A stretch of 60,977 nucleotides of DNA, counting the filler, from Dimargaris cristalligena (taxonomy: Eukaryota): assembly GCA_003614675.1 (NCBI GenBank). It is 4 parts of 4 records of this genome, joined end to end, with 100 filler letters (N's around TTAATTAATTAA, not from the genome) between each part and the next. Parts side by side here need not be neighbours in the genome. Positions count along the whole stretch, not along the records: positions 1 to 15,202 come from ML002906.1; 3 more parts are not named here. The stretch is one strand, 5' to 3'. This document shows positions 2 to 60,867 of the stretch, piece by piece. Within the stretch, counting starts at the first letter, position 1. The number at the start of each line of letters is the position of its first letter. Made by a program: the position numbers and the translations under genes. The notes under the pieces were generated by a model, which did not search any database, was not told the DNA's origin, and saw nothing but the letters and a program-made list of their open reading frames with translations.

Positions 2-3000
2 CAACGGCCGTGCCTGAAGGGTCTTGCGGTCGGCCTTGCCCACGGAGGTCATCGGGATACAGTCCAATATGACAATAAAGTTGGGCACCATATATCGTGG
101 GAGTTTAGAGGTGAGTTGAATTTCAAGGGCTACCGTGTCAACCGAAGTGGGGGCAATGTAGAGAACTAGTTGCTGTTGGGTAACACACGCAACAGCGTTT
201 ATAACGCCCTCAATTGATGAGGCGGTGTTCTCGATTTCGCCCAGCTCGATACGGTAACCACGCAGTTTGACCTGGAAGTCTTTCCGAGAAATAAACAAAA
301 CCTTGCCACTGGAAAGCTGGCAGACGAGATCTCCAGATCGATACAAGCCACCGGGGCCAAATGGGTTAGGGACAAAGGATTTAGCTGTGAGTTCAGGTTG
401 CTTCCAATAGCCCGAGCCAACGCCAACACCGCCAATGCAGAGTTCGCCGGGGACACCAATGGGGACGGGCTGAAGTTGATCGTCGAGAATATAGCCGTGG
501 GTGTTGGCTATTGGGTAGCCAATTGAGATGGGTTCATTGATTTGGACCAAGTTAGCGTGACACCCGATCGTGATTTCGGTTGGTCCGTAAAAGTTGTATA
601 GCGAAACATGTTTACACCACTGATGGCCGACACTAGTAGGAAGGGCTTCACCAGCGGTAATCACTTTGGCGATATTCGGATACCCGGATGGATCGATGGT
701 GGCCAAAAGGGAGGGTGTAATAATGCAGGTATTTACCCTAGTAAGGGTATCCGCGAAATTTCCGTCCATCAGTACCAATGTGCCCCCTGAGTGGAAGGTA
801 CCCAAAATTTCAAAGAGGCATCCATCAAAGGAAATGTTCAGAAGTTGTAAGAACCGGCATTCGGAGTCGAGTTGGGTGGTCTCACAACTGGATATGATGA
901 AATTGACTAGTGACTCGTGTCGCGCCGGGATACCCTTGGGCCTACCAGTGGTGCCCGAGGTAAATACGATATAAGCCAAATCCCAAGGCGCGCGAGTGGT
1001 GTCCGGTTGAAACAAATCAGTGACCATTCCATGGGGATCGATGGTATCGACGAGGAAACACTGACTTTCTAACTCACGAATATACCCCTTGAATCGCTCG
1101 AAATACTCTGTTGTAGTTAATGACCAAGGATCATCCAAGAGATCAAATGAATATTGCAGGCGGTCAGTCGCGTTGGTTGCGTCCATTGGGACACAAACCC
1201 CGCCGGCCAGTAGAACACCAAGATAGCTGAATATAAAATCGACAGAATTATTGAAGATCATAGCGGCAAAATTCCCAGGTTTGAATCCGCGTTGTTGCAG
1301 GGTCAGGGCAATGCAACCCGACCGATGGTAAACCTCTGCGTATGTAAAGTGTCGACTCGAGGTCTCGAGTGCAATAGCATTAGGCTGAGTAGCAAGGTGT
1401 TGGGTGAATAGCTGGTAGGCCAGCCAATGTCGCTGGGGGAATTCATGGACGGGTCCCTGGGCCCATTTCTCAACAAGCTGGGCCTCGTCAGTTGGAAGAG
1501 TCATAAGCTCACTCAAACTAAGGTGTGGATCGTTTACCATCATGGTTAAGCAATGATTGATAAACCACATCAAATAAATGGCGTAGGAATCGTCGCAGTG
1601 GGCAATATCGTAAACCAAGTGACAGTCCAAATTATCACCATTGTCCAAAAAGCTAATAGCGTAGGCGTATTCGGTGAAATTTTGCCCATCACGAAGCTCG
1701 AAAATAATATCGGAGTTTGTAGTTTTTGGTGTAGAAGATGGGAAATTGTCGTACACCATGAGGGAATTAAAGAGCTTGGTTTCAAGGTTGATTTCACCCC
1801 ATTTGTAGATATCAAGAAGACCACACTGCTCAAATGTGGTCAGATCACCAGATTGGCGGTGCAGGCACTGGACGAAGTTGGTAACGGAGGCCGATAGGTC
1901 CAGAATCACTCGGAAGGGCAGGGCATTGATGCACATACCCACCATATTCTGGATACCTGGTACGGAAACGTTACGGCCCGAAGTGAGAACACCGAATGAT
2001 ACTTCATCAGACTCGCTCAGGTAGCGGGACAGAGTAAGGGCCCAAACACCGCGCAGGAGGGTGTTAAGTGTTATGCTTTGCTGGCGACAGAATGCGTGCA
2101 GGCTTGACAAACTTGACGACAGTGTGGAACGATATGTTCCATACCCGCATACCAGGGGTTCTGGAAGGAAAACAGGGAAGTGGATCGGTGGAGTGGGTCG
2201 GGCATTTCCCAGATGGGTTTGCCAAAACAGTTGGTACTGGGAGTTGTTGGTACATTGAAGGTGGGAAATGTAGTGGCTAAACTGAGGGGAGGGCGTCAGC
2301 TCGGTGCCGTGGTATAAGTCAACCAGTTGGGCTAAAATAATATTATGGGACCAGGCATCGAGTAGGCCGTGGTGAAAGGTGAAGAAACATAAATGGCGGG
2401 AATTGCTAGTGGCAGGTGAAATGAAGAGGGAGATTCTTAGTAGAGGTCCGTCAAAAGTAAACCCGCGTTGACGGTCGCCCGCAAAGTAGGTTTTCTCCAG
2501 TGTGGACCAGTCGTCGACTATGTTAGTATTGATGGTCCATTCAATGTCACACCGCTTCGTGATAACCTGGAGGAACGAGTGAGTTGACAGGGATCCAGGC
2601 TGGAAAAATTTAGCTCGCAAGATGTCATGATGCCCAGCCAGCTGGTGCCACGCTTCCTGGAGGCGACTTACGTCCAAGTCCCCAGAAATGGTAAAGGACT
2701 CCTGCACCATATACGAGCTTGGGTCTTTCAGGGTACTGACGAGGAAGCCCAGTTGGAGCCCGGAAACCGGCAGAATATCGGTGATTTCACTCAAGCCCAA
2801 TTGCAGCCGGGAAGCGGCCTCTTGAAGGAGGGAGTCCCTGGCAGCGGAAGAGTTACTCACTTCGCCCAATAGGCTATATGGCTCGTAGTGGGTAGATCTA
2901 TGTGTTTCTGATTGCCAGTCAGATTTGGAATTATCTGCGGCACATTCGGCCAGCTCAATGATATTACTACACTTAAACACTTGGGCGATTGAAATATACA

Positions 3001-6000
3001 GACCACGGTCTCGGCAGAGGGAGGACAGGCGGATAGCAGAAATCGAATCACCGCCGAGTTGGAAAAAGGAGTCGTGAATGTCAATCTCAACACTGGGAAC
3101 ACCCAAGGTCTGGCTGAGGGCCTCGACAACCAGGACCTGTCCCGAATTCTGTGGGGCCGTAATAGTCCGCGTATTATTCATTGAGGTTAACTCGGCAATT
3201 CGGGCAGCCAGGGCATGCTTATCGGTCTTGCCGTTGGTATTGCGGGGTAGCACAGCCAGGTTAAAAATGGCGCTGGGGTTCATGTAGGCCGGTAGAATCC
3301 GACCTATATGAGACTTGACGGACCCGATTGGGACTGGACAGGGGCAAACAAATGCGTAAATTCGCTGATTAGCAATTACCACGGCGGCACTCTGCACATC
3401 CGGATGGCCGAGTAAAACCGTCTCAATCTCCTGTGGCTCCACCCGGTGACCACGAATCTTAACTTGGTCGTCCTGCCGGGCAAAATACTCAACGGTGCCG
3501 TTGACGAGCCAACGGCCGGTATCCCCCGTTCGGTAGAGGAGACCCTTGCCAGTAAAAGGATTGGGCAATAATCGTTCACGGGTAAGTTCTGGCAAATTGA
3601 TGTAGCCTCGGGTAACCTGAATACCCGCTACGCAGATTTCTCCCCGCACCCCGACCGGCACTGGCTGCAGATTTCGGCCAAGAATGTAGGCCTCGGTGTT
3701 GGGAATTGGCTTGCCAATGGTCAGCGTGTCGCCTACTTTATATTCGATGGTATGTGAGAGAAGGCACTCGGTGGGACCGTACATATTGAACACGCGACAG
3801 TGGCCTGCCCAACGCTCGGCCACTTGACGAGGAAGGGCCTCTCCTGCGGCCATGACCTTCTTTAACTTGGGGTACTTGGATGGATCCAAGGAGGCGAGCA
3901 CAGTGGGTGTGGCCACCAAGGCCTCCACCAAGGGAAGCGCGTCCAGAATATCCGTACGTATGACAATGGTACCGCCTTTGCACAAGCCGGTGAAGATCTC
4001 CAGCAACGCACAGTCAAACGTCAGGGCCATGTTCTGCATCACGCGTAACCCAGGGGTGATGCCGACTGTCGACTCGGCCTGTTGAACAAAGTTGGCCATC
4101 AAGCGATGTTCCAGCTGGACGCCCTTGGGCCGCCCTGTGGTACCTGACGTGTAGAGGATATGCGACAAGTTGGTGGGTTTGATGCAGGGCAAGGGTTGTA
4201 GTTGGTCGGAGGGCAACTGGAGAGGGAGGAGCCAGTCAGCAATGGCAATGCACTCAATACCAACAAGGGCCAGCCGAATAGACTCGAGTTTGCCTTGGTC
4301 GGCTGTGTTTGTCAATACTAGTTTGATACCGCAGTCCCCCACCATGTAGCTGATTCGGTCGACAGGGAAGGTGGGGTCGAGGGGCACAAAGGCGGCTCCT
4401 GCCTGGAGGACACCCAGAAAGGCCGCAATAGTAGTAGGCAGCCGGTCGATTAGAAGACCAACTGGTGCCTCGCGTTGAACGCCAAAATGCTGCAATCGGT
4501 GGGCCAGGTTTGTCGTTTGACCATACAATTCCTTGTAGGTCCATTGGGTGTCCTTGTACTCAACTGCAACGGTATCTGGAATAGTCTCGGCAGTACCAGC
4601 AAATAGGCTGGGCACACAGGCATCGAAATCGATGGCCAGGGCTGGACGGGCAAATTGTTCAGTGACCAAGGCGATATCATTGGTGGATAGCATTGGTAGA
4701 TCGTCAATGAGAGTGTGGTTTTTAGAGTCTGTAAGGGCGCCAACCAGTCCATCGAATAAGGTACACAAGTGCTGGGACAGGGTTTCGACGTAGCACCGAT
4801 CAATCAGAGACGAATCCCAGCTCAGGCACACGGTAATTTCCCCATGCTCCACTTGGGCAATAACTGCCAAAGGGTATTCCGTGGATTCAACCGACTTGGT
4901 GTCCGTAAAGGTGATTGTATGGCTCAAGTCGCCCAGTCCGGTATCGGGGTAGTTCTCAAACACCACTAGAGTATTGAACATGTCGCTGGGACGGACCTCG
5001 CCATCTATCCACCCATTGATCTTCGCCAAATGGTGGTGTTCGAACGGAACCATCTGCTGGGAAGTAGAGTTGATGGCCGAGACAAGCTGTGATACGGTCA
5101 AATTTGAACCAAAGTGGACTCGGAAGGGCACGGTGTTAATGAGGCACCCCAGAAGAGAATCGATGCCAGCTAAAGGGAGTGTCCGACCAGACACCGTGAT
5201 ACCATATATGATATCAGCCTGGCCGGTGTAACGGTTCAGGAGGATGGCCCAAGCAGCTTTAATGAGGGTATAGGGAGTGTATCCCAAGAGCCTAGCAACT
5301 CGCTGAACCCGGTCATAATCCGAGAACAGGGTAAAGTAAAACTCGGTCTTACGGGACTTGGGCATGCCGGAAGGTTTGGGGAGCTCCAACTCCGTGGGCT
5401 GTTCGACCCCTTGAAGGTAGCCATGCCAGAATGATTCGGCTTCGGGACTGTACGTATTCAAGTAATACCCAACGTAGTCGCGAAATGATAGGTCAGCGAC
5501 ACCTTCGGCCGGGGATGCGTTTTGCAGACGGCTCCGGAGTTGTTGAATGATAAGCCCAATCGACCAGCCATCGGCCAGGGCGTGGTGAATGGTTAGAAGG
5601 TAGCGGAACGAATTGGACGACAGCTGCTTGACACAGACTCGGAGGAGTGGCTCATCGAGCGCAAACCCCCGTGCCTGGTTCAGCTGTAAAAAATGGTCTT
5701 CACTGTCTGCCTTTACATCCGTCCACTCGTGGAGGACCTGCCAATCGAAGCGTGGGGCTCGGGTGATTATCTGGACACCGTCACAGTGCCGACTGCTCCA
5801 GGTAGTTAAAAACACTGTGCGCAGAATGGTATTGTCGGCAACCATGGCCCGGGTTGCGCCTAACAGCTGATTAGGGTCCGAAATACCCGTTACGGTGAAG
5901 GCCAATTGGACTAGGTATTCCGAGGGGTCCTTAGCCGTAGTCGTCCACATGCCCTGCTGCATGGGTAGCATGGGATAGAGGTCTTCGACATTGTGTGGGG

Positions 6001-9000
6001 AAAGGCCTACGGTGATAAGCTCGCCCTCAAGTTTCGCCAGCTCAGCTAAAGAGGCGCGCAGGTCAGGGAAATCCGACGGGATCCATAGAGTGGGGGGCGG
6101 AGACTGGTTGAGATATTGGGATAACCTGACCAGGAAGTTCCGGAATTGGCTCAAGAAGGACTCGATAGTCCCTGTCGCTATGACCTGCGGACAATAGTTT
6201 ACCGTGAATACCAGCCCAGAAGACGTGGGCAAGCCAATGATCTCCAATAGCTGTGCCCGGAGCTCATCAGAGTCGCAGAAGGCCATATCAGAAGTCAGTT
6301 CGGGGCGAAGTGTCCAAGGGGCACGGCCCTGCTGGGTTAATGTCCCATGGTCTACTGTATGTCCCAGGTAGTTAAATGCCACCTCAATCGGCACATACGG
6401 CCGATTGGAGTTTGAAATCTCAGGGCGGCTTAGCAGTCTCTGGAGGCTATTTTGTAACCCATTGGTGCCACCCGACGAGCGGAGGGCCTGTTTGGCCTGT
6501 TTAATAAAATCCAAATCTGCTGTGCTGGAATCGACTTGGGCCTGGCAGGGTACTAGATTGGTAAACCAGCCAACAGTGCGGCTGGGGTCAAGGCTAGTAT
6601 CCCATGGATGACGACCATGTGATTCATTGTAAATGGTGATGTCTGACGCCTGTGTCAACGAGTACAAGGCCTGGAACAAGCCAGCGAGTATCACCTCCAG
6701 AGGTTGGATAATATGGGTGTCAATCCCAAGCAGGGCATCCGAAGAGGTACTATCTAGGGTAACTGATAGACGCCGCGAATTGCCCTGGGTATTAAACGCC
6801 AAGTTATCGGGACTGGTGAGAGGTAAAAATGTTGATAGTATCGGGGTCGATGGCTGATCAGCCACAGGGCAAGGTTGGTTGGCCCAATCAGTCAACTTTG
6901 TCGCCCAGGTCGGAAATGGGAGATGCTGTGGTACTGGCGGCTGGCCGTCTAGGAGTCGGGCTAGATCATCCAATAGAATTGACCAAGATACCAAATCCAC
7001 TACCAGGTGGTGGATCGTCAGAAATAGCAACTGCCGAGGAGATACCGAGGATGTGATGGGGCTGTGAGAAACCGATTCGGTGGACAGACTGGTAATATTA
7101 TCCGAGATGGTAATGAGACCCGCAGCCAAGTGGTGGCCCTGAGAGATGTCAAGTGAGGACTGGATCGACGTGAATTGGCCAGAACAGTTGGACAGTGGGG
7201 CAGTAACCCCCAGTACGGGAATGGGTAGATTTGAAAATGGTGGCAGTATGCATTGCGACCACTGGTTGGGTGATTTAGACGTGATCCTGGAGAATTGACA
7301 GCGCAACATATCGTGGTGGTTGATCAGACGAAGAAGGGCGGTCTCAATCTGGAGGGTGGAGAAAGGCCGGGTCAACTCCAGGGCAAACGACTGGTTGAAG
7401 TGGTGAGGGTTGTGCCAGGGGTGGTCGAAGAACCACTGCTGCAATGGGGTAAGCGGGAACGGGCAGTGGTATTTAACAGTTGGATGTAAATTACTCTGGC
7501 CAGCGGCAGGGTCAACAGATTCCATATTACCGACAACATCACACAGGGCTTTTGATCCTAGTATTGCTGAGGTGGGTAGGACAAATCCCAATTGGCGGCA
7601 CTTTGACGAAACTTGAATGGCCGAAATTGAATCACCGCCAAGTTTAACAAACGACAACTGCAGATTAATCTGGCCAGAGGTTAATCCAAGCACATCGCCC
7701 AATGCTTGGGCTAGGGCCCCCAGCGGTTGTTTTGACAACGTTAATGCGGAATCAGATAACGGTACCTGCTTCCGCTGAGAGGCCAAATACTCGGTGAAAT
7801 GGCTTTGAAGATATTTGGTATCACACTTGCCGTTGATAGTGAGAGGCACTGTAGGAAGACCCATGAAGTAACTGGGTATCATGTAGGATGGCAAATAATC
7901 GGTTACAGCAATGTGAAGTTTTTCACTGTCGGCGGCGGTTTCGGGGAAGATATAACTGACCAAGAATTGGTCATGGACAAAAACAATGCAATCCTGGACC
8001 CCGGGCTGACGCATCAAGACGCTACGAATCTCGTCCAGTTCGATACGGAATCCCTGGAGTTTAACCTGACTGTCCATGCGGCCTATACACTCGACCTGCC
8101 CATTTGGCAACCAACGACCCAGGTCTCCGGTGCGGTAAATTTTGCCTCGACCGGTGAAGGGGTTTTCAACGAATTTGATGGGGTTGAGATCGGGCCGGTT
8201 AATGTAGCCACGGCTGACACCAACGCCCCCGATGCAGATTTCGCCAATGGCCCCGATGGGAACCAGCTGTAGCTGGCTATCCAGAATGTAACACTCGTAA
8301 TTGGGGATCGGACGACCAATGGAGATTGGGCCAGTCAGCGAAACTCGAGTAAAATGGCTAGCGATGGTAGTCTCGGTGGGCCCGTAGCCATTATAAATAT
8401 CGGATACAGCCGCCCATTTATCAGCCAACTCACGTCTGAGAGGTTCACCCATCAGGCATAGTTTCTTGAGATTGGGGTAGTCCGATGGATTAAGTCTGTT
8501 GATTACTGACGGAACTAACCAGGCATGGTCTACATGGTGCAAAGTATCTGCCAAAGCATCATCGTAGAACACCAATGTTGAACCAGAGCACAGGGTAACG
8601 AGTGAAATAAGGATAAATGCATCGAATCCGGGGGATGCACCCATCATGACACGCTCATCCGCTACTCCGAAGTCCTGGAATGCGGGATTACAGACAACGT
8701 AGTTGAGACTACTATGGTTAACCAGCACCCCCTTGGGCAGACCTGTGGTCCCCGATGTGAAAAGGATGTAGGCCAAGTCATTAGGGCGATTATGGTAGAT
8801 CTCGGACATGCTATCAGAATTGTCAATGTTCTCTAGTAATTCAGACAGAACTAAGGTATTAGGTAACTGAGTAGGCGAGTTGGTGGTGTTTAGAACAGCC
8901 TTGCATTGTGCAGTTTCGATAACATACATTTGTCGTTTTACCGGCAGCTTACAGTCTACAGGGACATATACTGCCCCTACAGCCCAGACTGCCAGCATCC

Positions 9001-12000
9001 CAATAATCGTATCCGGGTGATTGGCGACAATGACGCCGATCGGGTCTCCCGGCTGAATCTGAGCATTTCGCAGCCCAGTGGCCACCGAATGAATGCGATC
9101 CATGATATCAAGGTAGGTCCAAGCCTGACCGGATATCTCCGTAGCTGAGTGATCGGAATATTGAGCAACCGCCTGGCTGAATTGCCATAGTACTCTCGCA
9201 GGCAACCTCTCGGCCGATGCGTCAGTTAATGGGCCCCCAAGCGCAAATTCCTGGAGCAGGATGCGAGACTCGTCAGGCGAAACCATTGAAGCGCTGGCCC
9301 ACAACCGCTCGGGGTATAAACAGGCTTGCGAATAGTGGAGGAAGTTACGTAGTAAGCGCTCGGCCGTCAAGCTTGCCATTATATCTGCATTGAAGCGAAG
9401 CTCGCACTGACTAGTGGAAGCCGTTTCCCGGATAATTAGTTCCAGGTCGTACGTGAATAGCGAGTGAGAGTTTCTGGGATAAATGGCCTGGGTGCCATTC
9501 CAACCAAGTTCGTTATGAGAATCTGAATAGAACGAAATCCGGGCTCGAGATAGACCAGATAGACGGATAAGACCAACGTGGTTCACAAGCGACGAATAAA
9601 ACCCGATTGGCGGAGTTGGATGGCCCATGGACTGACGGTGTTGAAGACTAGCATACTCGACCAGTCGAGGGATATAGCTTGGCCAATTACCGGAGAAGCG
9701 AATCGGTATATGGCTGGCAGGTTGTTCAATGGTTCTCCCCATTTGAATACCGGACAGGTCTTCCGAACTGCTGTAATCGACGATAATATCGTCCTGGCCC
9801 GTCAATCGCCTTAGAAATGAGGCGAAGAGGGCCAGCCAAATGTCGCCTTCAGCCAATGAATCGGATAGTTTAAGACCCGCCAAGGACGCCATTAGACTGG
9901 AGTCGAGTTCAAGACCTGCTATGGCAGATTGGAAATTCGGGAGAAGGGGCCGAGGAAATTCAAGGGGTAAAGTGAGCTCGACTGGAGGATCGCAGAGAAG
10001 GGTTCTCCAATAACTGTCATCAGTGCCCTGAAAATCACAGTGGCTGGAGTTCAGTTTGGTCTCCAATGGACTGCATCGATCCGGAAAAATTACATGCAGC
10101 TCCGCACTTAAGTGGCTGATCATTCTGGTGAATAAATAATCTTCGGCAGCAATATCATGAACTCGGAAGCATACGGCGGATGATACACCGCCCCCACTAG
10201 GTGTTGGAAAATGGTACAGGTCCACCTGGAGAAGAGCCCCACGATCAAGGTTGAGTTTGGCCTCTTGCGAGAATATTTGGTCGAGAGCCAACGACTGGGC
10301 TGTCATCATTTGGGTTTCGGTGACTTCAATTCGCAGCCGAGATAGAACGCAACACGTCAGTTCGCCATGGAGAGGGATAAACCGATATCGAAGGGACTCA
10401 AACTCAGCGGATAGGCGGTCAACAGCCCGCTGGACGACCTGCAGTTGGAGTTCAGCTTCCGAGGTGAGCACACACTGGTGGAAGAAGTTTGATACGGTAT
10501 TGCCTAGTCGACTGAGAGTCCAGATTTTCTGTTGTCGGTCGGTAACCGGCTGAATCCGATAACATACAAGCGCCGACACTGATAAGTCAATTCCAGCCTC
10601 TTCGACACTCAACACGCCCGAATGCTTGGCTGGACCTTGCTCGATTTGCTCAAATAAGATGGATGATAGCATTCGAAGATCAGGGCACTTTATCAAGTCC
10701 CCCAGGGGAAACTTGACACCGAATTTCGAGAAAATGCGATATTGAAGCAATTCCAGTTGGGCCAAGGTGGCCCCAGATGAAGTTCGAAGAAGGGGGGCAG
10801 TGGAGTAGCCGAGGGAGGGCTTCAGTGAAACGCCTAGCTCATTCACCACCACAGTGAGCCACCATTCTGTTTCTGACATTGATTCAGAATGGCGAAGAGG
10901 GACGGTGGCGAGGTATGCCTGGGCGAAGTGTGGCAAAAGATGCTCAGCAAGCTCGGTCACGTGGGGAAATGCGTGGATCGAAATAATAGCGTCAGGTACT
11001 AGAGCAGACGGAATGGCCGGAGAAGTCATGGATGCTGCCAGTTGGGAAAGGTCTGCTTCAGCAGGGTTGTCTACCAGGGCGACTAGTTGACTGGTGGGTA
11101 GCACTACACATCTCGGAGATACGGCACCGGCACCAACTAGCGCCTGAGACAGGGTGCCCAGGTGCACTTGCTGCCTCTTCAAAACCACTCTTTGGGTGAC
11201 AGGACCTAGCAAGTGCGTTAAACCGCTATCATCATGATAGCCCAAGACCGACCGGTTAGTTAGGGCTGCATAATCGGGTGACGATGGGCCAGAGAACGCA
11301 AGGCGACCGACGACCCCCGGGGGACAGAGATGACCATGGCCATCCAACACGACCAGGGAATAATGGATAGAGGGCTTGTTCAAAATGGGGAAGGACCGGG
11401 ACGCCAACTGCTCCTTAGTAACCAGCTGGTGGCCATGGAAGATGGATTCAATAAACGATATGCAGATGTCGGAGGTATTGAATAAACAGGCGACATTAGG
11501 CCGGTTCGTCTGGGATAGGTCACAAAGAACAAGCCTATTCCCTCCATCAGAACCCTTGGACAACGACGAATCAGCCGCCACCGCATGCCACGAGGTTGGC
11601 GTGGTATACAAATCCAGAGGCAAATCGGGACCAAGAATCGCCTGATGAGACGATAGGCACGCGAGAATGAGCCAGGCGGCTTGGGGGCTATCCAGGGCCA
11701 GCGAATGGTCAAGACTAATATGCTCTTTGCCGAAAATGTAAGCCCGTGTTGAGGCTAGGGTGCGCTGGATACACAAGCCATCGACGGTGGAAAATGACAG
11801 ATCATCCGATTTAGTCTTAAAAACAAAAGTCAGGCTAAGATCCTGTTGATCGGTGGGGGGCTTGAATTGATGAGGTGTTCGTGTGTCGTTGATGTGCTCG
11901 TCAACTGCATTTGGTATGGAAATCAATTCCACAACCCAATTCAGACGCGAATGGACTTCTTCAAATTTAGAAGATGGTAGCCATACGGCGTGGCTCTCTG

Positions 12001-15000
12001 TCAATTGGATACACATATCCAGTTGGTCAAGGGTGCATGGGCAAGCCAGAAGTGTGAGGTGGGCATTAATCTTAATTGCGCTCACCAAACAGACTAGCAG
12101 ATTTTCAGTGCTATCCACAAGGGCTATGATCGATGGACAAAAGGTGCTAAGGGTCTGGACAGTTTGAAATGCAAGAGCATCGGCCAGTAAATCGACCAGG
12201 CCATACGACAGCCTGTAGGTTTCTGAGATGTAAGCCGGGTGATCGTAATTATCGTCCAAAGTAGAATTCCAATTTCGGACAAGCGATACGGAATGCAAGT
12301 TGTCTGCCACGTCTCCCAATTCTTGTTCGGGGACTGTGCCGTGATTCATCAACGGCGCTGTCAGTGCAAGTTGATCCACAGTTGTGTTGATATCTGCTGA
12401 CAGAAATTGCTCAAGAACTACCTGAATCATCTCGACTAATTGAGCAATGGCTTTCTCGGAATAGTTGGACGTGTCGTAGCATACCTTGACGTCAATTTTC
12501 TGGGACCCATCGATAAAGTTGACAGCCAGTGGGTATTCCGTAAATTCGTGGATACGTAGGTCAGACAAAGAACAATTGTGCGTAGGGTCAGTCTCCAGAG
12601 CAGGGAAATTTTCGAAACCCAGAAGCGTTTGGAATAGAGGCCCAGATCGGCCAGTCAGAACCCAGCGGTTAATGTCAGTCAGCACTGAGTGCTCGAATGG
12701 GAACATGGCTACTTGGTTGTGGTGGAGGGCACGCAGCCAGGCTGAAATTGAGGAATTGCCCAGGTGCACGCGAAAAGGCAGAGTGTTCGTACAGGGCCCA
12801 ATAGCCTGACCAATACCCAGCACACCCAAATTCCGTCCGGATAGGGTTACACCAAACACCACATCAATCTGGTCCAGTAGTCGCCCCAGAACCAAAGCGA
12901 AGGCGGCACGAAGTAAAATGGCAACTGTCACATTAAGTTTCTGTGAGCACCGGGTCAGTTCTACTTTGGAAATATCGATTGCGGCTATATATGCAGCGAA
13001 ACCCGGCAATCCGGTTTGATCCTGGAGGATTAAAGGAGCGGGTGTAGATGGTGCACCCCGCAGAAAATTGGCCCAAAATTCTTGAGCCGAATCCAAATTG
13101 AGCTGACTGACATGGTGGACAACTGTGGAAAATGATGTCGGTGAATTTGCAATGGACGGACAGGGATGATGGTAGGCCTCCATCCACGCCCGAATTAGTA
13201 GTGGCATGGACCAGCCATCGCAGAGGGAATGGTGGAGTGTCATAATGACATTGTGCACCCGGGCCTCGGCGGTGGGAAAAACGAAATTCCGGATCATATG
13301 CTCCCGCAGTGCGAACCCACGCTGGTGGTTTTGGGTCAAGAAATCGTCAAGAGAGTTTAATGGTTGGTCAGAAATGGTCCAGGCGGTAGTGCACGAACGA
13401 AGGACGGTCTGTATATATCCCCGTGTCTGTTTCGATGATGACTCGAGAAACACGGTACGCAAGGAGCTGTGTGCCTGGGAAACGGTCTGCCAGGCCTCAA
13501 GCAATCGGTCGACATTGAGTGGTCCATTAATTTTGAAGGCGATCTGTACTACGTAGGCAGTGGGGTCGGTAGATAGTCCTGTCAATAGGCCACTTTGGAG
13601 AGCGATACAGGGCAGCAAGTCCTCCACCTGATCCAGTGCAATGCGACGGTGGCACAGTTCGCTAATAACCTCCTGGAATTCGGGAGCGGAGAGTTGGAGG
13701 TGGGCGAAGTCATATCGTGTCAGGAGCGGTTCCACGCCGATAGATTGAGACTGGTTCATGATATTGGCAAGTTGGACGAGATTTTTGCGCCACTGGATCA
13801 TAATGCCATCAACAACGCTTCGGTGGTAGACTAAAGGATTGTAATCCATAACCAGATGTAAACGATCACCGGCCACCGCGGGTAAAGAACTAAGATCACA
13901 TATGGCTGTATCATTAGGGGCGAAGCCATGCCAGCTGGTGGAGTAGTCCGACCATTCAATCGATAGGATATCATCATCAAGTTCGCCGTTGGTATTAGAT
14001 AGCCATTCGAAATAATTGAACTGGACGTCTAGTCGAGTCGGGGACTTGGCCTCCAACTTGGCCCGCTCGTCTACCGAAACCCCAGGCATATATTTCAATA
14101 AAGAATAGGGGAATCCCTTCATTGGAATTTGCTGAAGGGCCTCCTTGGTGTGGCGCAATAGGTCTAGTAAGGGTTGACCAGGTTGGACCCGAAGAACGAG
14201 AGGGTAGAGAGAAGTAAACCATCCCACTGTACGGGCAATATCTTGGCCAGACCATGGTTCACGACCGTGTCCTTCTATACAAAAAGTAACCTGGCCCAGT
14301 CCGACAACTGAGGCAAAGGCGTGGGTAAATGTGGCCAGAAGTAGGTCCTGCGGAGTGACCCGCAACCGCGGGGCCAATTGGAACAATAGCGAGTGTGTGG
14401 ATTCAGAGTCGAACTCGAATGCTGTGGAGAGGCGAGCGGGCTGGGTACAGGGAATGTCAAATTCCGGTGGTGGAAGAAGGGTGCGGATATCTGGAATAGG
14501 TTTGTCGGAGTCGACTTGAGTGGGCCAGACATCAGCCGACAGAGTTGATGCATAGTCGTCGAGCTGGGAGACCCAGGCTTGGAAAGACATAGTTTTCGGT
14601 GGAAGCGAGGCTCCTCGAAGTAGGGTATTCAAATCGTCAATCAGAATACGCCAAGAAATCAGGTCCACCAAGATGTGGTGGATGGTGATGAATAGGCGGG
14701 GCTTCGATGCACTGCCAGGCTTATGAATCAGAGCAGCTGCCAACACAGGACCCGTGGTAAGGTTAAGGCCAGACTTAATTCGCACAACGAAGTTCAAATA
14801 GTCTTCCGAAAAAACCGACTCTTCCAACATCAAAAAATCCGCGGAAATGGCCGTAAGCGTAGGAATTGTCTGGATCCACAGTTGGTCGCCATTGCCGGGT
14901 TGGAATCGGGCCCGGACAATGTCATGGTGGTTGGCCAAAGCCACAAGAGCGTCGGAAATGGCCGCTAGTGATGGATTGGCCCCAGGGTTGACTTTAAGAG

Positions 15001-15202
15001 TAAAGAACTGGTTAAAGCAGTGGGGGTTGCGAAGGCCTATGTTACTAAACCATCGCTGAATAGGAGCTAAAGCTACCTCTCCAGAAACCTGCCCATGATA
15101 AACAGGGTTGGTTCTGGTCCCATAGGTAGTGGTTTTCTTGGTGTTCCGGGCTAACTGATGAAGTTCTGGGTACTGGTAAACTAAAGGCACAGTTAGGCTA
15201 AA
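2..15202 (-). CDS. Multimodular nonribosomal peptide synthetase, partial at both ends: (T)-E-C-A*-T*-C*-A-T-E-C-A-T-C-A
   Basis: All motifs read in one minus frame. A3 motifs: DLAYIVFTSGTTGRPKG (~932-982), LSHILYTSGTTGRPKG (~4121-4168), DLAYILFTSGTTGLPKG (~8729-8779). A5 YGPTE occurs 3 times. C motifs: HHGLLDAW (~2351), HHALADGW (~5564), HHSLCDGW (~13211). E motifs: HHLVVDLVSW (~6983) and HHILVDLISW (~14651), plus ESHGRH/EGHGRE, RTVGWFT and FNYLG. T motifs GGDSI at ~3041 and ~7625. The ORF track lists no terminated minus ORF in this frame, consistent with an open frame running off the window. Confidence 0.96.
9300..12280 (-). other. Degenerate in-frame NRPS A-T-C unit (A ~10930-12280, T ~10650-10880, LCL-type C ~9300-10560)
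   Basis: Recognisable but eroded A1/A2/A6/A8 remnants, with no A3 P-loop and no A10 Lys. The T motif reads LRTSSGATL instead of FFxLGG(H/D)SL. The C active site reads HDIAAEDY instead of HHxxxDG. No stops found on manual translation of ~10140-12300. Confidence 0.85.
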
Positions 15203-15302
15203 NNNNNNNNNNNNNNNNNNNNNNNNNNNNNNNNNNNNNNNNNNNNTTAATTAATTAANNNNNNNNNNNNNNNNNNNNNNNNNNNNNNNNNNNNNNNNNN
15301 NN
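15203..15302. other. Artificial contig spacer
   Basis: 44 N + TTAATTAATTAA (stops in all six frames) + 44 N. Confidence 0.97.
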
Positions 15303-20954: not shown

Positions 20955-22150
20955 TTACAAGTCGTCAATAGAAAGAGGTATAAGGGACACTTGGTTCATG
21001 ATGCGCTGCTTAGCGGCCTGGCTCTTGATCCAGGCAGGGGTTTCCTTCTTTTGTTTAAGGGCCATCTTCTGGGTCTGGATACGGGAGGGAATCGGTTAAG
21101 TCATAGACGCAGATAGGAGGGTTTAAATTAGTACAGTGATAGGATGCAATGTTGGTAACTTGCAAGTGACACTACTGGGGGAGCGTTAACGACCAGTTGG
21201 GAGGATAGGTCGACTGGTAGTTGCTTCAACTGACTAAAAAAAAACTAACAAAAAGACCGCCGATAATTGCGTCATGACCGAATTCAAGGCTAATAGTTAA
21301 AATAACACGGCCACGTCTAACTTACCTTCTTCTGCTTCAAATGTACCCGTTGGTTGATGATGGCCAGCTCAGCCGCCTCCCGCTTCCGGTAAGGGTGGAA
21401 GACCATTTTGGCGGCCTTTTGCGGCTCCACCACGTTGCACACCAACGAATGGCCCTCGAGTAGGTAGTTGTTCATCGTCGCAGCGGCAATAGCCGCCACT
21501 TCCTTATGTTCGAACTGCACGAACCCATAATGGCGGAACGCCTGGGTCTTGGGATTCCGGGCGGCCGAGCAGCCGGTGATGTCACCGAATTGCCGGAAGT
21601 AGTTTCGCATGGCCTCTTCCTCGAAACCCTTGGGCAAGCGGCCGACGTAAATGGTGCCCCGCTCGGACGAGCCTTGGGATTTGGAGCCGGAGGTGGTCGA
21701 CGACTTCTCTAGGGAGGCGGTGGCGTCCAGTTCAATCTTGTCGTCGAGGTCTTTGAAGGCATCAATGGCCTCCGCATCTTCCTGAACTTCCGGTTCGGAT
21801 TCATCATTGTCGGACGAGGAGTCATTCATAAATTGCTCCCGGATTTGGGCCTCGACTTCCTCGGTTTCAGTTTGGATGGGCTCGGCTACCACGACTTCCT
21901 CCTTCTTGGACGGCTGGGGGGTTTCCTCGACAACCTTAGCGGGCTCTGTTGCAACAGTACAAAGAGTGGAAGGGAGGCGGGGGCGAAGGTTAGATTTGGC
22001 GTTAGTATACATTAGTGGTATGTTTGTATGGGTAAAGGTCTCTTGAAAGTAAGCACGCTTATCGGATAGACTATCCTGGGGTTAGAATAATGCCATGAAG
22101 GCTTTTAAAGGATACTTACGGGCCTTGGGGGCGCTCTTACGACGGGCCAT
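20955..22150 (-). CDS. NOP15: Nucleolar RRM protein, Nop15/NIFK-like (exons ~22150-22120, 21945-21326, 21074-20955)
   Basis: Acidic N-terminal region, RNP2 IYVGRLP, FEEEAMRNYFRQFG, RNP1 HYGFVQF and VAAIAAATMNNYLL as in Nop15/NIFK; GT-AG introns preserve the frame. Confidence 0.8.
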
Positions 22151-30479: not shown

Positions 30480-30579
30480 NNNNNNNNNNNNNNNNNNNNN
30501 NNNNNNNNNNNNNNNNNNNNNNNTTAATTAATTAANNNNNNNNNNNNNNNNNNNNNNNNNNNNNNNNNNNNNNNNNNNN
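30480..30579. other. Artificial contig spacer
   Basis: 44 N + TTAATTAATTAA + 44 N. Confidence 0.97.
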
Positions 30580-30799: not shown

Positions 30800-32117
30800 T
30801 CAAACGGGTGGAACTAGCGGAGCTGCTTGGGGGAGGGCTGGACTTGGGGGTGCCTTGTCTCCCAATACCGCCTCCTTGGCCTTACTCGCCAGCCCGCTGA
30901 AGGGATTTTCCCAAATCGACCGCCCGTAAATATCATTATGCCAATAAACGCTGTTGGGGTTGTACTTGGTGTTCACATTCCCTAAATTCGTTTCAAACTC
31001 AGCATTCTTAATCTCGTAAGTGACGTCGTCCGAGTCAATGAAGAACTCGTCATTTTCGTGGAGGTAGCCCATACGCCGCAGCGGTATGCGGGAGAAGATG
31101 TCATTCTTGTTGGTGACCCGCTGATGGACCAATCCCAACCCGATAATATACGCTGCAAAGTTTTTGTTGCCCAACCGGGGTCGGCCGAAGGTGGTTAATA
31201 CCATGCGATCCTTGAGGCCAGCCGCCGGGATTTCCAATAAGCGGGTGGCTAGCATCGTGGCGTGGACTCCGCCGAGGGATTGCCCAATCACCCACAGCTG
31301 GTGGTCGGGGTACTTATCCAGGTACCCGCGGGTCCGCTGGATGAGGGTGTCCGCCAATGTATTGAATGAAGTTTTGAATCCATGGTGCACCTGGATGTTG
31401 GAATCGGTGCCCCAGGGGTCCAATTTGGGCTGGAAGTTATGGAAATACGCCTGAACCTGGTCGGCACCTCGAAACGCTACGATGAGTTTTTTGCCAGTGG
31501 CATATCGAGCGAAATACCCGCCGATGAAGGGGAATTCGTTGATAAAGGGTTTATCCAGGAGTTCGCTTACCGGTTTGTTAAACTGGCCCGTAAATATAGT
31601 AGGGTTGGGATCCTTGATATCAAAGTACGAATCGAAAGCGTAGCTATTTGGCCGGCAATTAGGGTATTGGGATAATTGGCAATGATAATAATTGACGGTA
31701 AGTAAACAGCATGGTTCTCGTACAGCCGAATTTCTCCAGAATATTGGCGGAGGTAACTTCGTGAACCTAGGCGTAATGCCACCGAATAAAAAAGGCGGGG
31801 ATAAATAAGTTACCGCCCCTACCAGAAATGCCACATAATACTTACTCTAGCTTGAGCTTCAGCTCTGCGACCGTCGCGTCGTCGACTTTGACCCTGACTG
31901 CGCCGGCCTGAGTAGGTGCGGGGGCGTCACTTTCCACATCCGTAAACATGGCCTCGCCTATACCTTTTAACATATCATTGACATTTTGCTTGAGATTTTT
32001 AACCATGGTCCCCAGAGATGAGGTGGTATCAAAGTTGGCTGGCTCCGGGACTTGGGCATGGGCCACCAAGGCCGTACCGAGTATGGACAGATGAGCGGCT
32101 ATCAAGAATACGCGCAT
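30800..32117 (-). CDS. Secreted class 3 lipase (exon 1 32117-31846; internal exon structure uncertain)
   Basis: Signal peptide; motifs LIVAFRG, VHHGF, IGQSLGG (nucleophile elbow), TFGRPRLGN, RVTNKNDIFSRIP, GYLH and C-terminal WHxxIYG; GTAAGT donor at 31845. Confidence 0.9.
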
Positions 32118-45742: not shown

Positions 45743-45842
45743 NNNNNNNNNNNNNNNNNNNNNNNNNNNNNNNNNNNNNNNNNNNNTTAATTAATTAANN
45801 NNNNNNNNNNNNNNNNNNNNNNNNNNNNNNNNNNNNNNNNNN
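45743..45842. other. Artificial contig spacer
   Basis: 44 N + TTAATTAATTAA + 44 N. Confidence 0.97.
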
Positions 45843-46913
45843 CGCCGGTTCGGTGGCCTCGGGACTGCGGGTGAGCTGGATCTTATGGTCGGATATTTGC
45901 AGACCGGATTGTTCCCAGAATACGGGCACACTGCCCCGAAGGGTTAGGTAGCTGTAGCAGCGATTGTCAAGCAGGCAAATCACCTCGGTCTCGACTTCAT
46001 TAGCCACGTTACCCATATCATCCAAACCCCGGGTCAGGTACCGGGCCCCCGTGCGTCCACTGCAGGACCGGGATATGATACACAGATGGCCGTACCCCTC
46101 GGTGGTGTGGGGGAGGGGCACCGAGCCGACGAAGCCCTGAATGAGTGGAATAAAGAGCGACAGGTCGTCCAGCATCTGCTGCTGGGGCTGCTCAAGGCTG
46201 TGGCGGAAGCGCAGCAGGGGCTTGAGCATGAAGGTATTCCACAGGTACTTGGGATCATAGGGGAATTCGCGTTCCGATGAAATCGATTCCGTGTAGCGGG
46301 ACTGGAGGTTCCGGGTTAAGTCCATGCTGGGGCTAAAAAAGAAGGACGCATTGGCGAGATACTGGCTCAGGGCATAGCAGGGGTGGGTTGATGATGAGGA
46401 GCCGTTATGGGCGTACCGCACTGCGGGGGCCTGGCCCGGCTCGTCATACTCGGCGGCGTTCATATCATAGCGATTCCAGTCGTCGTAACGAGACGAATTG
46501 AGCGACAGGAAGACGACCCGGCGTAAACAGAAGGCGGGTTCGCGGGGTAGGACCTGGCAAATAAAGTCGCATTCCGCAATGAGGCCCACGTACACGTCAT
46601 TCTCGTGGTAAATCAGACCGATGCACCCAAAGACTGGATCGCCGTCCAGAATGGAAAAGTCACGCAGCACGGAAGTGGGCTTGAGTTCAATGTCGCACTG
46701 GATAGCCGGGGCTGAGGAGGCCGAACCATCGGCCGCCCGGGGAAGTGGTGCGCGGCCGGCCTCCCGTAGAGAGATGACCACCACTCGGCTATCGAGTCCG
46801 CCGGAGTCCCGACCCGTGCCACCGTCAAGTCGGGTCCGAGAGGGTTGCGTCGGGCATAGGGCGATGGCCCGGGGACGGTCCCGGACGTAGACCATGCATT
46901 GTTTACACTGCAT
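45843..46913 (-). CDS. Sac1-domain phosphoinositide phosphatase, synaptojanin/Inp5x-like, 3' truncated by contig end
   Basis: FFFSPSMDLTRNLQ, YLWNTFML, LIQGFVG, ISRSCSGRTGARYLTRGLDDMGNVANEVETE, LRGSVPVFWEQ. Confidence 0.92.
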
Positions 46914-48201
46914 GGCCAGGCGGTGGCTGGTTAGCAAGGGGGGCGGGAATTCAGATAGAGCTAAGGGTGGGAAGCCAGGAAGCCGCAGGTCGGCGCTGGT
47001 TAAGAAAAAAGAGGGGGAAGGAAACTAGGCTCAAGCCAAACCGAACGAAGCAATTAAGATAAAGGTTCTAGTCAGTAGAATAAATGTATTGCGGAAAAAT
47101 AAGAGAGCTGTAGCTGGGTTGAAATGGATAGAAAACCAAAACAAGATGCCTTACATGTGCTACAGACGTTAGTTGTTAAGCAAGGGCTTGGCTAATATGG
47201 GGTGACGTTGTAGCTCAGAAGTTGGCAACTGTCTGAGAGGCCATGGGACCTATTAAAACATGGGCCAATTGTTTATTCGACGCGGCAATCCAGGTGCAAT
47301 TTTGTGAGAATCGTTTCATGGCTGTGGGGAGGGTTTTGGTTTAAGCTGGATATTACCAGAGTTGTTAATTCGATGGGCTCTACCTGCGTGTATTGCCCAG
47401 ACAACCGATGCCACAGATGTGCTACGTGGCGGCAGCGGCTGCCATAGGGCGGCTTGGGACCCAGTAGGCGAAAGAAGCCGCTGCGTCCTGTTTGCTAGGA
47501 GCCTTTGGATTCTTGGCATAGGCAACCTAGTATAGTATAGTCCAACGTCGGGTCTTATAACCCCTGCACTGAGACGAACTATTCGCTTAATGTGATAGAT
47601 GTGATCGCTAATCAGTCGAACCACATCGATTGTTCTGGCGGGGGTAACTTAACTTCCGCGGTCTATGTTCCATGGGCGGAGTATTGGTGATAGGTTTATA
47701 CCACGTGACTTGAATGGAGCTGCCCCCTTAGGAATGGCGAGGAGGGTTTGTCAGCGCATCCCATCCCTTTGACCTATAGTTGGCGGGGAGTATAATGCGT
47801 GTATGCGCATAGATGTGTGGCGGAAGGGAGAGGATTCATTGGATTCGGTTGAACAGTCTTCTCGCCCCCTTTCCTAGCATATATCCCAGCGTCCCCTCCT
47901 TCCAGTGGAGATGGTGTGGTGAGTAAGCCGAAGCAATCCCGAATGAACACTACTAGACCTTTTGCAGCAAACCAACCGTCCGTTGTTGCTCTCTTCTCTT
48001 CCTTCCCCTTCCATTCCTCTCTAACTCTCCGTGTACTTCAACTATCCCGTCTGTAGCCCTTCGGCTCGTCGTCATTTGTATTGATTCCCCCGTTCTTCTC
48101 CGATTGCGGACACGCCTCATCCTCCGCCGGAGTTTCTCTTATTCACCTCTTTCTCTACCACTAACCTTCCGCTCCCCTGCTTCATACCACTCTTCCGACC
48201 C

Positions 48202-51200: not shown

Positions 51201-51596
51201 AATGTCACTTCCGGCTCTAAGGTCGGGGATGAGGATGGCTCGCAGGCTGTCAATGACACCGCCATGGATACCGACGAGGCGAGCACTGCCAAAGCCAAGG
51301 TCCCGAGTGGCGACTCTGCTACTGCTTCTAAGAAGTTCGAACCAATCAGCGAGAACCTGCCGAACTTGTGCCGCGTGGTGCCCGCCCAATGGCGGCATAT
51401 TTCGTTCCCAGCCGACGCGCGCTACGTGCCCGTTAAACGGGGTGCCCTCACTGGCGGTATTATAATGCTCGATGATCTGCAGCCCGATCAACCGCAGGAG
51501 CTGATGGCCTCGGTCATACCCCGATCCCATGAGGGATCCGGCTCGGAATTACAGCTACCTAAGCCATTCGAATACCCCTTCGGCGATGATGATTAG
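48202..51596 (+). CDS. RPN2: 26S proteasome regulatory subunit Rpn2 (exons 48202-48223, 48404-48521, 48800-51596)
   Basis: GGLLALLEE...VVDQFWSEIS N-terminus, PC repeats, WLARATNWTKF, HVRYGA, QGIIDAGGRNV and C-terminal PKPFEYPF; splice phases are consistent. Confidence 0.97.
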
Positions 51597-59600: not shown

Positions 59601-60867
59601 GCCATGGCACCGATAATGAGAGAGAAGAACACGGCAATGGCGGCATCACCAGTCATGACCCCCTCAGAGGCCAGCTTAATAGCGTACCAAAACCCCAGGG
59701 AGTAGGTTAGGAAAATGAGAAGCATCATGGTGCCCACACCGGCCCCCGAGATGATCGCCTTTCGAGTGCCGTCATGGAGAGCATCCTTGATCTTGGCGTG
59801 GTAGCGATCCGCTTCACGCTCCTGGCCACCAAAGGCCATCACGGTACGGATACCGGAGATGACCTCTTCAGCCACACCACCGGCGCCGGCGTAACTGTCC
59901 TGCCCCTTGGATGATTTCGAGGCCACTAATTTAGCCATGATGGCACCGCACAGGGCAATTAAAGGAAGGGCCGAAAGCAGGACCAGGGCCAAACGCCAGC
60001 CCTTGGCAAAGGCAATCGCAAACCCAGCGATAAAGCAACAGGTGTCCTGGAACACCACGCTGAGCTTCGAGCCAATACCCTCCTGGAGGACATTCACGTC
60101 CCCCGAAATACGCGAGGTAAGGTCGCCGGTGGAGACGGAATCGAACCAGGCAATTTCCTGGCGTAGAATAGCGGCGTAGTATAATTCACGGATCTTACGG
60201 CATTGGCGTTCGGCGGCGTAGGACCACAGAAAGATTTGGATAGTGGCGGCGGTAAGGTAGCGCCGGCCAGAATACCGAACCACTTCATCATGTCATAGAT
60301 GGCATCGTTAAGCACGATGTTGGCCCGAGCCGGATCGGACTGGGAGTAGAAGGCGTACTCACTTAAACTCTGGAGCACGTCGCCGAAAATAATGGCCATC
60401 AGGGGCTGGGATACACCAGTGGCCACAGCGCACACGGAGCCGACGGCCATCAGCACCCAGTCCACTGGTGTGGCGAATCGAAACAGGGATAGGAAAGACA
60501 CCGAAGGGGCCTTATCGGGGTCCAGGTCGTTAGAGGAAGCTTCGTCGGATTCCGCTGTGGTGGCTGGCTTGGGGTCTTCCTTTCGACGGAATACGGAGGA
60601 AAGCTTGCTGCGAGCAGTGGGGGCAGGCGTTGAAGACGCGTGGAGGTCCTTTTCCGATAGGGGTAATCCAGGGGAGAGGGGTCCGTTGAGGTCAGTAAGA
60701 ATAGGCAGCTCTTGTTTTTCCGACCCGTGGAGATCCTGACCCTGACGGGGCGTCATAGGGGCATCAAAGTGCTCATCGGCGACAGGGAAAGGCACGGCCG
60801 TTGAGTCATGACTGTGGGACGACAGGGTGTTGCGAGGCTGGAAATTGGGATTATTAGGAGGGTCCAT
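56642..60867 (-). CDS. Full-length ABCB1/MDR-type ABC transporter, intronless, with a 1-bp frameshift near 60255
   Basis: TMD-NBD-TMD-NBD architecture; Walker A GASGSGKST and GNSGSGKST, LSGGQKQR x2, LLLDEATSALD x2. The N-terminal ORF (VSFLSLFRFATPVDW) switches frame at GAT/TAATIQ. Confidence 0.95.

Follow-up and report, generated by a model that had tools for sequence, protein, structure and literature searches.

In the myxochromide S nonribosomal peptide synthetase (NRPS), the skipping of a module is caused by an inactive carrier protein (CP) domain, CP4, which carries GGNPS instead of GGHSL (PMC6180311). Only position 4 out of six tolerated engineered inactivation of the carrier, and deletions of A-CP-C and A-CP units (A, adenylation domain; C, condensation domain), both natural and engineered, are described in the same source (PMC6180311). 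The present analysis concerns an NRPS gene of the mould-parasitic fungus Dimargaris cristalligena (GenBank assembly GCA_003614675.1), part of which lies in a stretch of 60,977 nucleotides, here called the window, and which encodes in frame a complete but dead unit of A, carrier (T) and C domains, hereafter the ghost. As in MchC, the myxobacterial synthetase of myxochromide S and D (subtype 1), a whole module is kept in frame with a dead carrier core, and the A-CP-C and A-CP deletions of the myxochromide system parallel the loss of an A core in ghosts of the genus Tieghemiomyces (PMC6180311). However, the bacterial case is young, whereas the ghost in the window scores 12.6, 2.2 and 96.5 bits on generic profiles of A, T and C domains, respectively, and has lost motifs A3-A5 altogether. 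Unlike myxochromide S, moreover, the ghost is common to three fungal genera and many paralogs, and skipping, which was proven by product chemistry in myxochromide S, is something that we only infer for the ghost. By analogy, the ghost may work like the skipped module of myxochromide S, at a much later stage of decay.

Other described systems share single aspects of this arrangement. Modules of the type dA-T-C, with a degenerate A domain (dA) that is kept in homologs, are known from siderophore synthetases of the NPS6 type and from S. pombe Sib1 (PMC2823734, PMC2644324). The A domains of ChNPS6/SidD and of the second Sib1 module resemble the ghost A in being degenerate, without core motifs, in frame and conserved; however, T and C of these siderophore modules are taken to work, the T being charged by another A domain, whereas the ghost T lacks its serine and the ghost C its second histidine. 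Work on the fungisporin synthetase of Penicillium and Aspergillus, HcpA, proposes that one of its A domains is passed over or inactive and that a once complete module has degenerated (PMC4041764). HcpA is likewise a fungal NRPS of non-canonical order in which one A domain is presumably bypassed, but as far as that account goes only remnants are left there (an incomplete C in A. nidulans), the carriers are used, and a full-length dead A-T-C unit is not among the domains described. An inactive domain with the C fold also exists within glycopeptide synthetases, where the X domain is located in the last module. The X domain (Tcp12; structures 4TX2/4TX3) has no condensation activity and recruits P450 oxygenases (PMC10510592). 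Searches with the ghost by structure and by profile do return X structures; the ghost C, however, is located between a dead T and a live A domain and fits X domains no better than ordinary C domains.

Many NRPSs occur across Dimargaritales (Reynolds 2023, PMC9866270), and counts are available (Tabima 2020, PMC7466969). For D. cristalligena, 27 NRPS genes with two lineage-specific expansions and modular synteny were reported, mostly alone on short contigs (Ahrendt 2018, PMC6784888). Our literature search, which covered the literature outside supplements, found no description of a dead NRPS module in Dimargaritales (domain maps may be given in Supplementary Fig. 7 of Ahrendt 2018), no paper on 'degenerate adenylation' in NRPSs, and, in the sources as far as they were covered, no product of any Dimargaritales NRPS. 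Module skipping and degenerate domains are known as such; new, within the scope of this search, is that an entire A-T-C unit died before three genera split and is still carried by many paralogs. For genome mining, this means that counts of A or C domains in Dimargaritales NRPSs would mis-predict peptide length.

A dead A-T-C unit within an NRPS reading frame

The NRPS is encoded by a single open reading frame (ORF) of 5063 codons on the minus strand (window 2..15190), in which residue n starts at window position 15190-3(n-1). Pfam matches and motifs give the visible layout (T tail)-E-C-[ghost]-A-T-E-C-A-T-C-A(cut), where E stands for epimerization domain (Table 1). A dead A-T-C unit at 9300..12280 had been proposed from inspection of the sequence in a preliminary description of this DNA. 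The location proved correct and the unit slightly wider, running over 9182-12361; sequence order and fold support a full A-T-C arrangement, and all motif strings quoted in that description were recovered in place. The adenylation and condensation folds are kept in frame. What is missing is the P-loop of A3, the lysine of A10, the serine of the carrier and, in the C motif, the second histidine.

The catalytic motifs of NRPS A domains (ANL superfamily, Pfam PF00501/PF13193) comprise the A3 P-loop, (T/S)SG(T/S)TGxPKG, and the A10 lysine. In the ghost A, the segment QDLSLTFVFKTKSDD (aa 1116-1130, window 11801-11845) contains LTFVFKTKSDD at the position equivalent to A3, and the segment VVLDGHGHLCPPGVVGRLAFSG (aa 1280-1301, 11288-11353) contains the A6 remnant CPPGVVGRL. 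An A7/A8 remnant, LGYHDD...LSQAL, follows at aa 1316-1351 (11138-11245), and the equivalent of A10, AFPHVTEL (10949-10972), has no lysine. A scan of aa 653-2145 for A3, A7, A8 and A10 patterns gave no match. The ghost T has SSGATL (aa 1471-1476, 10763-10780), with threonine in the column where the GG(H/D)S(L/I) core of carriers has the phosphopantetheine serine; to judge from this sequence, it would be unable to be primed, within an otherwise collinear assembly line. The ghost C retains C1 (PVTDRQQKIW, aa 1548-1557), C2 (FESLRYRF, aa 1597-1604) and LTLPLEFPRP (aa 1739-1748), while HHxxxDG is replaced by HDIAAED (aa 1678-1684, 10139-10159), in which the second histidine is gone.

Table 1. Domains of the NRPS fragment and the linker at the end of its contig, in window coordinates
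Feature	Window	Residues	Strand	Basis or remarks
Intact E domain	13751..15103	30-480	-	Pfam Condensation-family stretch; HHILVD at 14663-14680
Intact C after E domain (upstream C)	12317..13630	521-958	-	HHSLCDGW at 13211-13234 (aa 653-660)
Ghost A-T-C unit, whole	9182..12361	944-2003 (1060 aa)	-	Pfam, HMM, homolog alignment, fold matches
Ghost A domain	10871..12310	961-1440	-	Pfam match below cut-off; collinear weak HMM pieces; ANL fold in model
Ghost T domain	10571..10870	1441-1540	-	Position, weak HMM, helices in model
Ghost C domain	9182..10570	1541-2003	-	Pfam, generic C HMM, PDB profile matches, fold
Next intact A domain	7766..9181	2004-2475	-	Pfam AMP-binding 241 bits; family HMM 690 bits
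Next intact T domain	7493..7732	2487-2566	-	Family T HMM 91.9 bits; GGDSI at 7610-7639
Artificial linker N44-TTAATTAATTAA-N44	15203..15302		.	Ends the NRPS contig; gene cut there

The three domains have decayed to different degrees. In Pfam, the ghost A reaches 12.7 bits on AMP-binding (cut-off 29.9) through one 33-residue stretch in the A6 region, the ghost C reaches 62.5 bits on Condensation (PF00668), above the cut-off of 30.6, and the 1060-residue unit has no match to PP-binding (PF00550). The generic profiles mentioned above are hidden Markov models (HMMs) of non-Dimargaritales, mostly bacterial NRPSs, built from 120 domains each and accompanied by 70 shuffled controls, the best of which reached -1.4 (A), 3.9 (T) and 2.2 bits (C). 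By sequence alone, the ghost T in the window is thus not above chance, and it is placed by its position and weak signals only. Across 14 copies of the ghost (see below), the A HMM gave -0.1 to 56.5 bits in 13 and no match in the remaining one, P0123; the T HMM gave 1.8-20.5 bits through the C-terminal half only (shuffles up to 3.9), and the C HMM 53-107 bits in 14/14 (shuffles at most 2.2). The pieces of the ghost A are collinear with the A profile and correspond to the A1-A2, A6 and A8-A10 regions. HMMs from the intact domains of the NRPS family itself, which we judged too narrow for the ghost, returned -3 to 5 bits per piece, with the pieces again collinear, and BLAST of the ghost against its own protein returned the self match only at E <1e-5. 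Searching the PDB with a profile of nine ghosts gave C domains (E 1e-13 to 2e-18), together with weak collinear A pieces.

Structure prediction adds to the picture obtained from profiles. A model of the whole unit is poor, with a mean predicted local distance difference test score (pLDDT) of 52.7 and a predicted template modelling score (pTM) of 0.31; its best Foldseek match is 5u89, a cross-module A-PCP-C fragment of DhbF (PCP, peptidyl carrier protein; E 1e-26). In the T region, this model has helices at unit residues 533-575 (block pLDDT 67-79). When the ghost A (aa 961-1440) was folded alone with 11 homologs, the mean pLDDT was 61.5, with low values at model residues 137-195 and 230-316, i.e., in the A3-A5 zone. 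A comparison of this model with 48,161 chains, made without Foldseek, placed adenylating enzymes of the ANL superfamily in all of the best 50 rows; the top match was 9n1v_A (Z 19.6, root-mean-square deviation (rmsd) 3.1 Å, 220 aa), and the match to SrfA-C (Z 18.6 over 309 aa) includes both the large N-terminal core and the small C-terminal subdomain of the ANL fold. A lobe of the ghost C matches solved C domains with Z 15-16 and rmsd 3.2-4.6 Å over 171-204 aa. On these models, the ghost keeps the adenylation (ANL) and condensation folds.

The domains on both sides of the ghost have their motifs. The E domain is 62-74% identical to seven of the nine D. cristalligena proteins compared, and the 943-residue piece of E and upstream C reaches 303 bits in Pfam, with its best stretch at 527-931. 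The upstream C alone scores 623.7 bits on the family HMM, and its HH..DGW motif is invariant in 9/9 D. cristalligena homologs that cover the site, in agreement with the earlier statement that this domain is competent by its HHxxxDGW motif; it is the presumed working condensation catalyst. The next intact A domain carries FTSGTTGLPKGV at 8726-8761 and has motifs A3, A7, A8 and A10; live A domains of the frame reach 241 and 452 bits in Pfam. The intact T domain behind it is presumed to be the acceptor carrier for the upstream C. With HMMs for C subtypes, the upstream C scores higher as 'C after E' (284 bits) than as 'C after T' (140 bits). The ghost C resembles 'C after T' in 13 of 14 copies and the three live C domains resemble 'C after E', a weak distinction given that the 'C after E' HMM was built from only 24 sequences. 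One of these live domains, which directly follows T3 with no E before it (window 1423-2890, aa 4101-4590), also scores higher as 'C after E' (261 bits versus 162).

Codon usage differs within the frame: the arginine codons AGA/AGG make up 12/51 in the ghost (9182-12361) versus 12/175 in the intact parts (Fisher p 0.0016). The observed-to-expected ratio of CpG is alike, with 0.86 in the ghost and 0.80 in the intact parts.

The same unit in Dimargaris, Tieghemiomyces and Dispira

The ghost is not the private decay of one gene but a family trait. A like unit stands at the same place in 18 other proteins of Dimargaris, Tieghemiomyces and Dispira, with 22-59% identity where measured, and in NRPSs with a ghost it always follows the first intact C domain. 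What had been described from a single gene thus recurs in three genera of Dimargaritales. The closest matches are nine D. cristalligena proteins, P0002-P0010, with 35-55% identity and one copy each; those that cover the site have the ghost between the first C and the next A domain. Among 1.84 billion representatives, a search further identified P0122, P0123 and P0125 from Dimargaris, P0124 and P0126 from Tieghemiomyces parasiticus, and P0145 from Dispira parvispora, and cluster mates contributed P0268 (Dimargaris) as well as P0270 and P0271 (Tieghemiomyces). P0122, P0123 and P0268 are further named Dimargaris carriers of the ghost. Ghosts from the other genera (P0124, P0126 and P0271 from Tieghemiomyces, P0145 from Dispira) are 22-27% identical to the unit in the window; P0124 aligns with it in one stretch over residues 24-1041 (214 bits), and P0270 has the same upstream motifs. 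Ghosts of Dimargaris and Dispira, and some of those of Tieghemiomyces, measure close to 1060 aa.

The spacing of motifs marks the same site. From the C motif to the next A3, the distance is about 1400-1490 aa at the ghost versus about 480 aa elsewhere, and a distance of more than 1000 aa was found in 14/30 such pairs in Dimargaritales proteins versus 3/835 in others. Spacing was measured for all 271 proteins, and names were checked for 9 of the 150 listed representatives beyond those named earlier. Two of the three long pairs first counted among the others proved to be from Tieghemiomyces. The third belongs to P0147, a 4469-residue NRPS from Stigmatella with additional entries under cloning vectors. 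Its residues from about 1500 to 2540 have a T core GGNPH and, in the next C, MHQAVSDH, while the upstream C has HHIIVDAW; P0147 is therefore like the NRPS in the window in combining a dead T and a dead next C with an intact upstream C. The module with the dead-looking T core reaches 456, 60 and 460 bits on the generic A, T and C HMMs, and its A3 is near-normal. From its genus, the GGNP core and the cloning-vector records, P0147 is probably the myxochromide S synthetase.

The loss of all three key chemistries, proposed from the one gene, holds across the family. In the aligned ghosts, the carrier-serine column contains T, P, S or R, without GG before it in any copy, and the C motif reads H followed by D, E, Q or P. 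The ghost A of Dispira is the least eroded (56.5 bits, with a partial A3-like TTATGTP), which fits descent from a real A domain.

In P0142 and P0188 of Tieghemiomyces parasiticus, and by its spacing in P0272, the ghost is without exactly the A core. According to the protein models, the gap in P0142 and P0188 opens where the C-A linker ends and closes at the A8 hinge, leaving A subdomain, T and C in place. What is always retained is the dead C that adjoins the live A. In two D. cristalligena proteins, P0002 and P0003, there is no E domain before the first C (207 aa from the T motif to the C motif, versus about 670 aa in others), and the ghost is kept.

Relaxed selection and the possible role of the ghost

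The account that we hold to be probable, if by no means secure, is that the ghost is an ancient bypassed module under relaxed selection, which is kept as a part of the polypeptide and whose C part is kept best. Residues 944-2003 would then be the fossil of a former module 2 of this synthetase family together with the condensation domain of the following module (A2-T2-C3). The assembly line would skip the ghost: the upstream C might take a D-aminoacyl or peptidyl donor from T1 and condense it with the residue loaded by the live A-T pair that follows the ghost. As a built-in part of the polypeptide, the ghost would have to fold and stay soluble, and the ghost C probably still acts as a structural partner of the A domain that follows. 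Deletions would be tolerated only where they coincide exactly with domain borders, and the A-core loss in Tieghemiomyces could be such a deletion. Since a Stigmatella NRPS has the same pattern, skipping with the upstream C as catalyst is a fair inference here. If the enzyme works, a condensation domain and an acceptor carrier would cooperate across roughly 1000 inert residues, and natural copies with and without the A core would show which parts can be removed, which bears on module deletion and skipping in NRPS engineering.

Comparisons within the family indicate that selection on the ghost is relaxed but present, and strongest on the C part. In the closest paralogs, identity is 53-59% for ghost A, 53-64% for ghost T and 44-59% for ghost C versus 54-76% for the flanking live domains, and between genera it is 16-25% for the ghost versus 35-52% for intact domains. 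The ratio of Poisson distances between ghost and intact domains has a median of 1.67-1.81 (47-56 pairs, 12 sequences), and the maximum-likelihood tree length is 8.09 for the ghost versus 4.30 for intact domains (11 sequences). The gamma shape is 1.88 versus 1.15, and allowing for rate variation adds 185 log-likelihood units for the ghost. In total, 98 columns (about 9%) are identical in at least 12 of the 14 ghost copies, namely 8.9% of A, 8.0% of T and 10.0% of C.

The frame itself is real. In an independent study, a second strain yielded the contig set X5 (depth about 400), which over the positions covered, 7383-11417 and 11431-13055, differs from the window by substitutions only, and X1 (40x), which covers 7380-12306, has zero differences, so that over the ghost as covered by these contigs the stops or frameshifts that might have contradicted a maintained frame were not seen. 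Between X5 and the window, the intact parts have 25 changed codons (15 residue-altering, 10 not), which corresponds to a ratio of nonsynonymous to synonymous polymorphism (pN/pS) of about 0.48; these codon counts, and those for the ghost below, omit at least one X5 difference. Joints in the X5/X1 contigs at 364>7615, 7639>13205 and 14701>14898 were considered as deletions and rejected, with 25-50 letters on the short side, as was a joint on the opposite strand in X4 (4732>5632); we take the joints in X5, X1 and X4 as assembly cross-links between repeated modules. At window positions 2536-3042, the summed depth of X5 contigs is about twice that of the neighbouring sequence (769 versus about 400-450), and 22 of the 59 X5 contigs placed on the stretch are only 90-95% alike. 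Both observations suggest a close paralog of part of the NRPS gene in the same genome.

Several observations weigh against a bypassed module that is still maintained. Selection is weak: substitutions in the ghost run at about 1.7-1.9 times those of the flanking intact domains, and runs of insertions and deletions (indels) are 5-10 times as frequent (2.6-3.0 versus 0.2-0.6 per 100 columns between genera). Between X5 and the window, the ghost has 14 changed codons, ten nonsynonymous and four synonymous; the resulting pN/pS of about 0.82 is indistinguishable from 1, and its difference from the intact parts is not significant (Fisher p 0.73). The comparison with the second strain thus has too few changes to separate the ghost from neutrality on a short time scale. 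Single bases are inserted at 8225 and 10791 in X4 (depth 4-7) but not in X1 (40x) or X5 (415x), and these insertions are probably assembly errors. Several D. cristalligena gene models miss 41-306 aa inside the ghost. Among them, P0009 and P0010 show no mismatch in any aligned block that could be inspected, as would be expected if two assemblies had each yielded the same gene; since their ghost gaps nevertheless differ, some of the gaps are probably artefacts of the gene models, or else patches over real damage. The absence of the A core from P0142, P0188 and P0272 argues against a need for the whole spacer, and confidence in the two structure models is low to intermediate.

The same observations can be read as signs of a pure frozen relic, skipped and without a structural or any other role, which persists as stops, frameshifts and bad deletions would kill the downstream modules, and which is slowly whittled away. 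Faster substitution, the 5-10-fold excess of indel runs, a pN/pS of 0.82 that is indistinguishable from 1, an A core cleanly missing from some copies in Tieghemiomyces, the gaps in several gene models and a T part barely above shuffles would all be expected of such a relic. However, synonymous divergence between the genera is presumably saturated, given the 35-52% identity of intact domains, and a neutral stretch should by now be randomised, whereas P0124 aligns with the ghost from end to end. A relic also fits poorly with 53-107 bits on the generic C profile in every copy, with an ANL fold that appears to be kept in the model, with clear rate variation among sites and with an overall length that, outside some Tieghemiomyces copies, stays close to 1060 aa. 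We consider a pure relic unlikely. The need to translate the downstream modules, which the preliminary description gave as the reason for the open frame, explains the retention only in part, in that three genera have preserved the folds of A and C along with about 9% of columns. A stronger role than that of a bypassed module would be a selected non-catalytic architecture, in which the C fold is an obligatory partner of the next A domain and the tether sets the geometry for the next live carrier to reach the upstream C. We regard this as possible but doubtful. If it were true, the natural series of full ghosts and ghosts without the A core would show which module parts are needed for skipping, a rule of the kind that NRPS engineers lack. 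As a narrower variant, we considered the ghost A core as a platform partner required by the upstream C; the Tieghemiomyces copies without that core weaken this idea. A predicted complex of the upstream C and the ghost A core, run without alignment and without controls, scored 0.00, which speaks neither for nor against such a contact.

Alternatively, the ghost, above all its C-like part, might have been repurposed as a platform that binds a partner in trans or another part of the assembly line, in the manner of the glycopeptide X domain. The long retention of a C fold with a changed histidine motif (H, then D/E/Q/P) would suit such a platform, and X-domain structures are indeed among the matches (4tx2 in the profile search at E 1.1e-7; 4tx3_B at Z 15.7, tied with ordinary C domains). 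Nevertheless, X domains did not rank above ordinary C domains in any search, the contig holds the NRPS alone and thus offers no partner gene to look for, and motifs conserved in the manner of a surface are few, the conserved columns being, by reading, largely Leu, Pro, Gly, Trp, Phe and other residues typical of a core. These points make a repurposed platform an improbable explanation. Most improbable by far is an unorthodox activity, by which the ghost C would condense with a single histidine, or a serine close to the usual site (SSGATL has two) would be primed in the ghost T, which another A domain would load in cis. Fungal siderophore dA-T-C modules, with a degenerate A but working T-C, set a precedent (PMC2823734, PMC2644324), and the first histidine of the C motif (H1678) is kept in 13/14 aligned copies. 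The carrier-serine column, however, is proline in the P0005-P0008 clade, no copy has the preceding GG, the neighbouring serines are not conserved, Pfam finds no PP-binding match, and the second histidine of HHxxxDG is gone, as is the aspartate in many copies.

The gene fragment and the rest of the window

The NRPS frame fills the first contig (1-15202) and is open at both ends, with a T-domain tail at the contig edge beside the E domain. It is therefore a gene fragment, and the statement that the unit lies within an otherwise intact NRPS does not hold for what can be seen. Beside the NRPS frame, the contig (1-15202) contains no second ORF of at least 200 aa. The window consists of four contigs of 15202, 15177, 15163 and 15135 bases with N44-TTAATTAATTAA-N44 linkers between them, whose N runs lie at 15203-15302, 30480-30579 and 45743-45842; genes on either side of a linker are not genomic neighbours. 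The remaining contigs carry ordinary eukaryotic genes: an RRM protein at 21317-22012 (-), a class 3 lipase at 30800-31834 (-), a SacI-domain protein at 45795-46937 (-), the proteasome subunit RPN2 at 48762-51596 (+) and a full-size ABC transporter at 56642-60283 (-).

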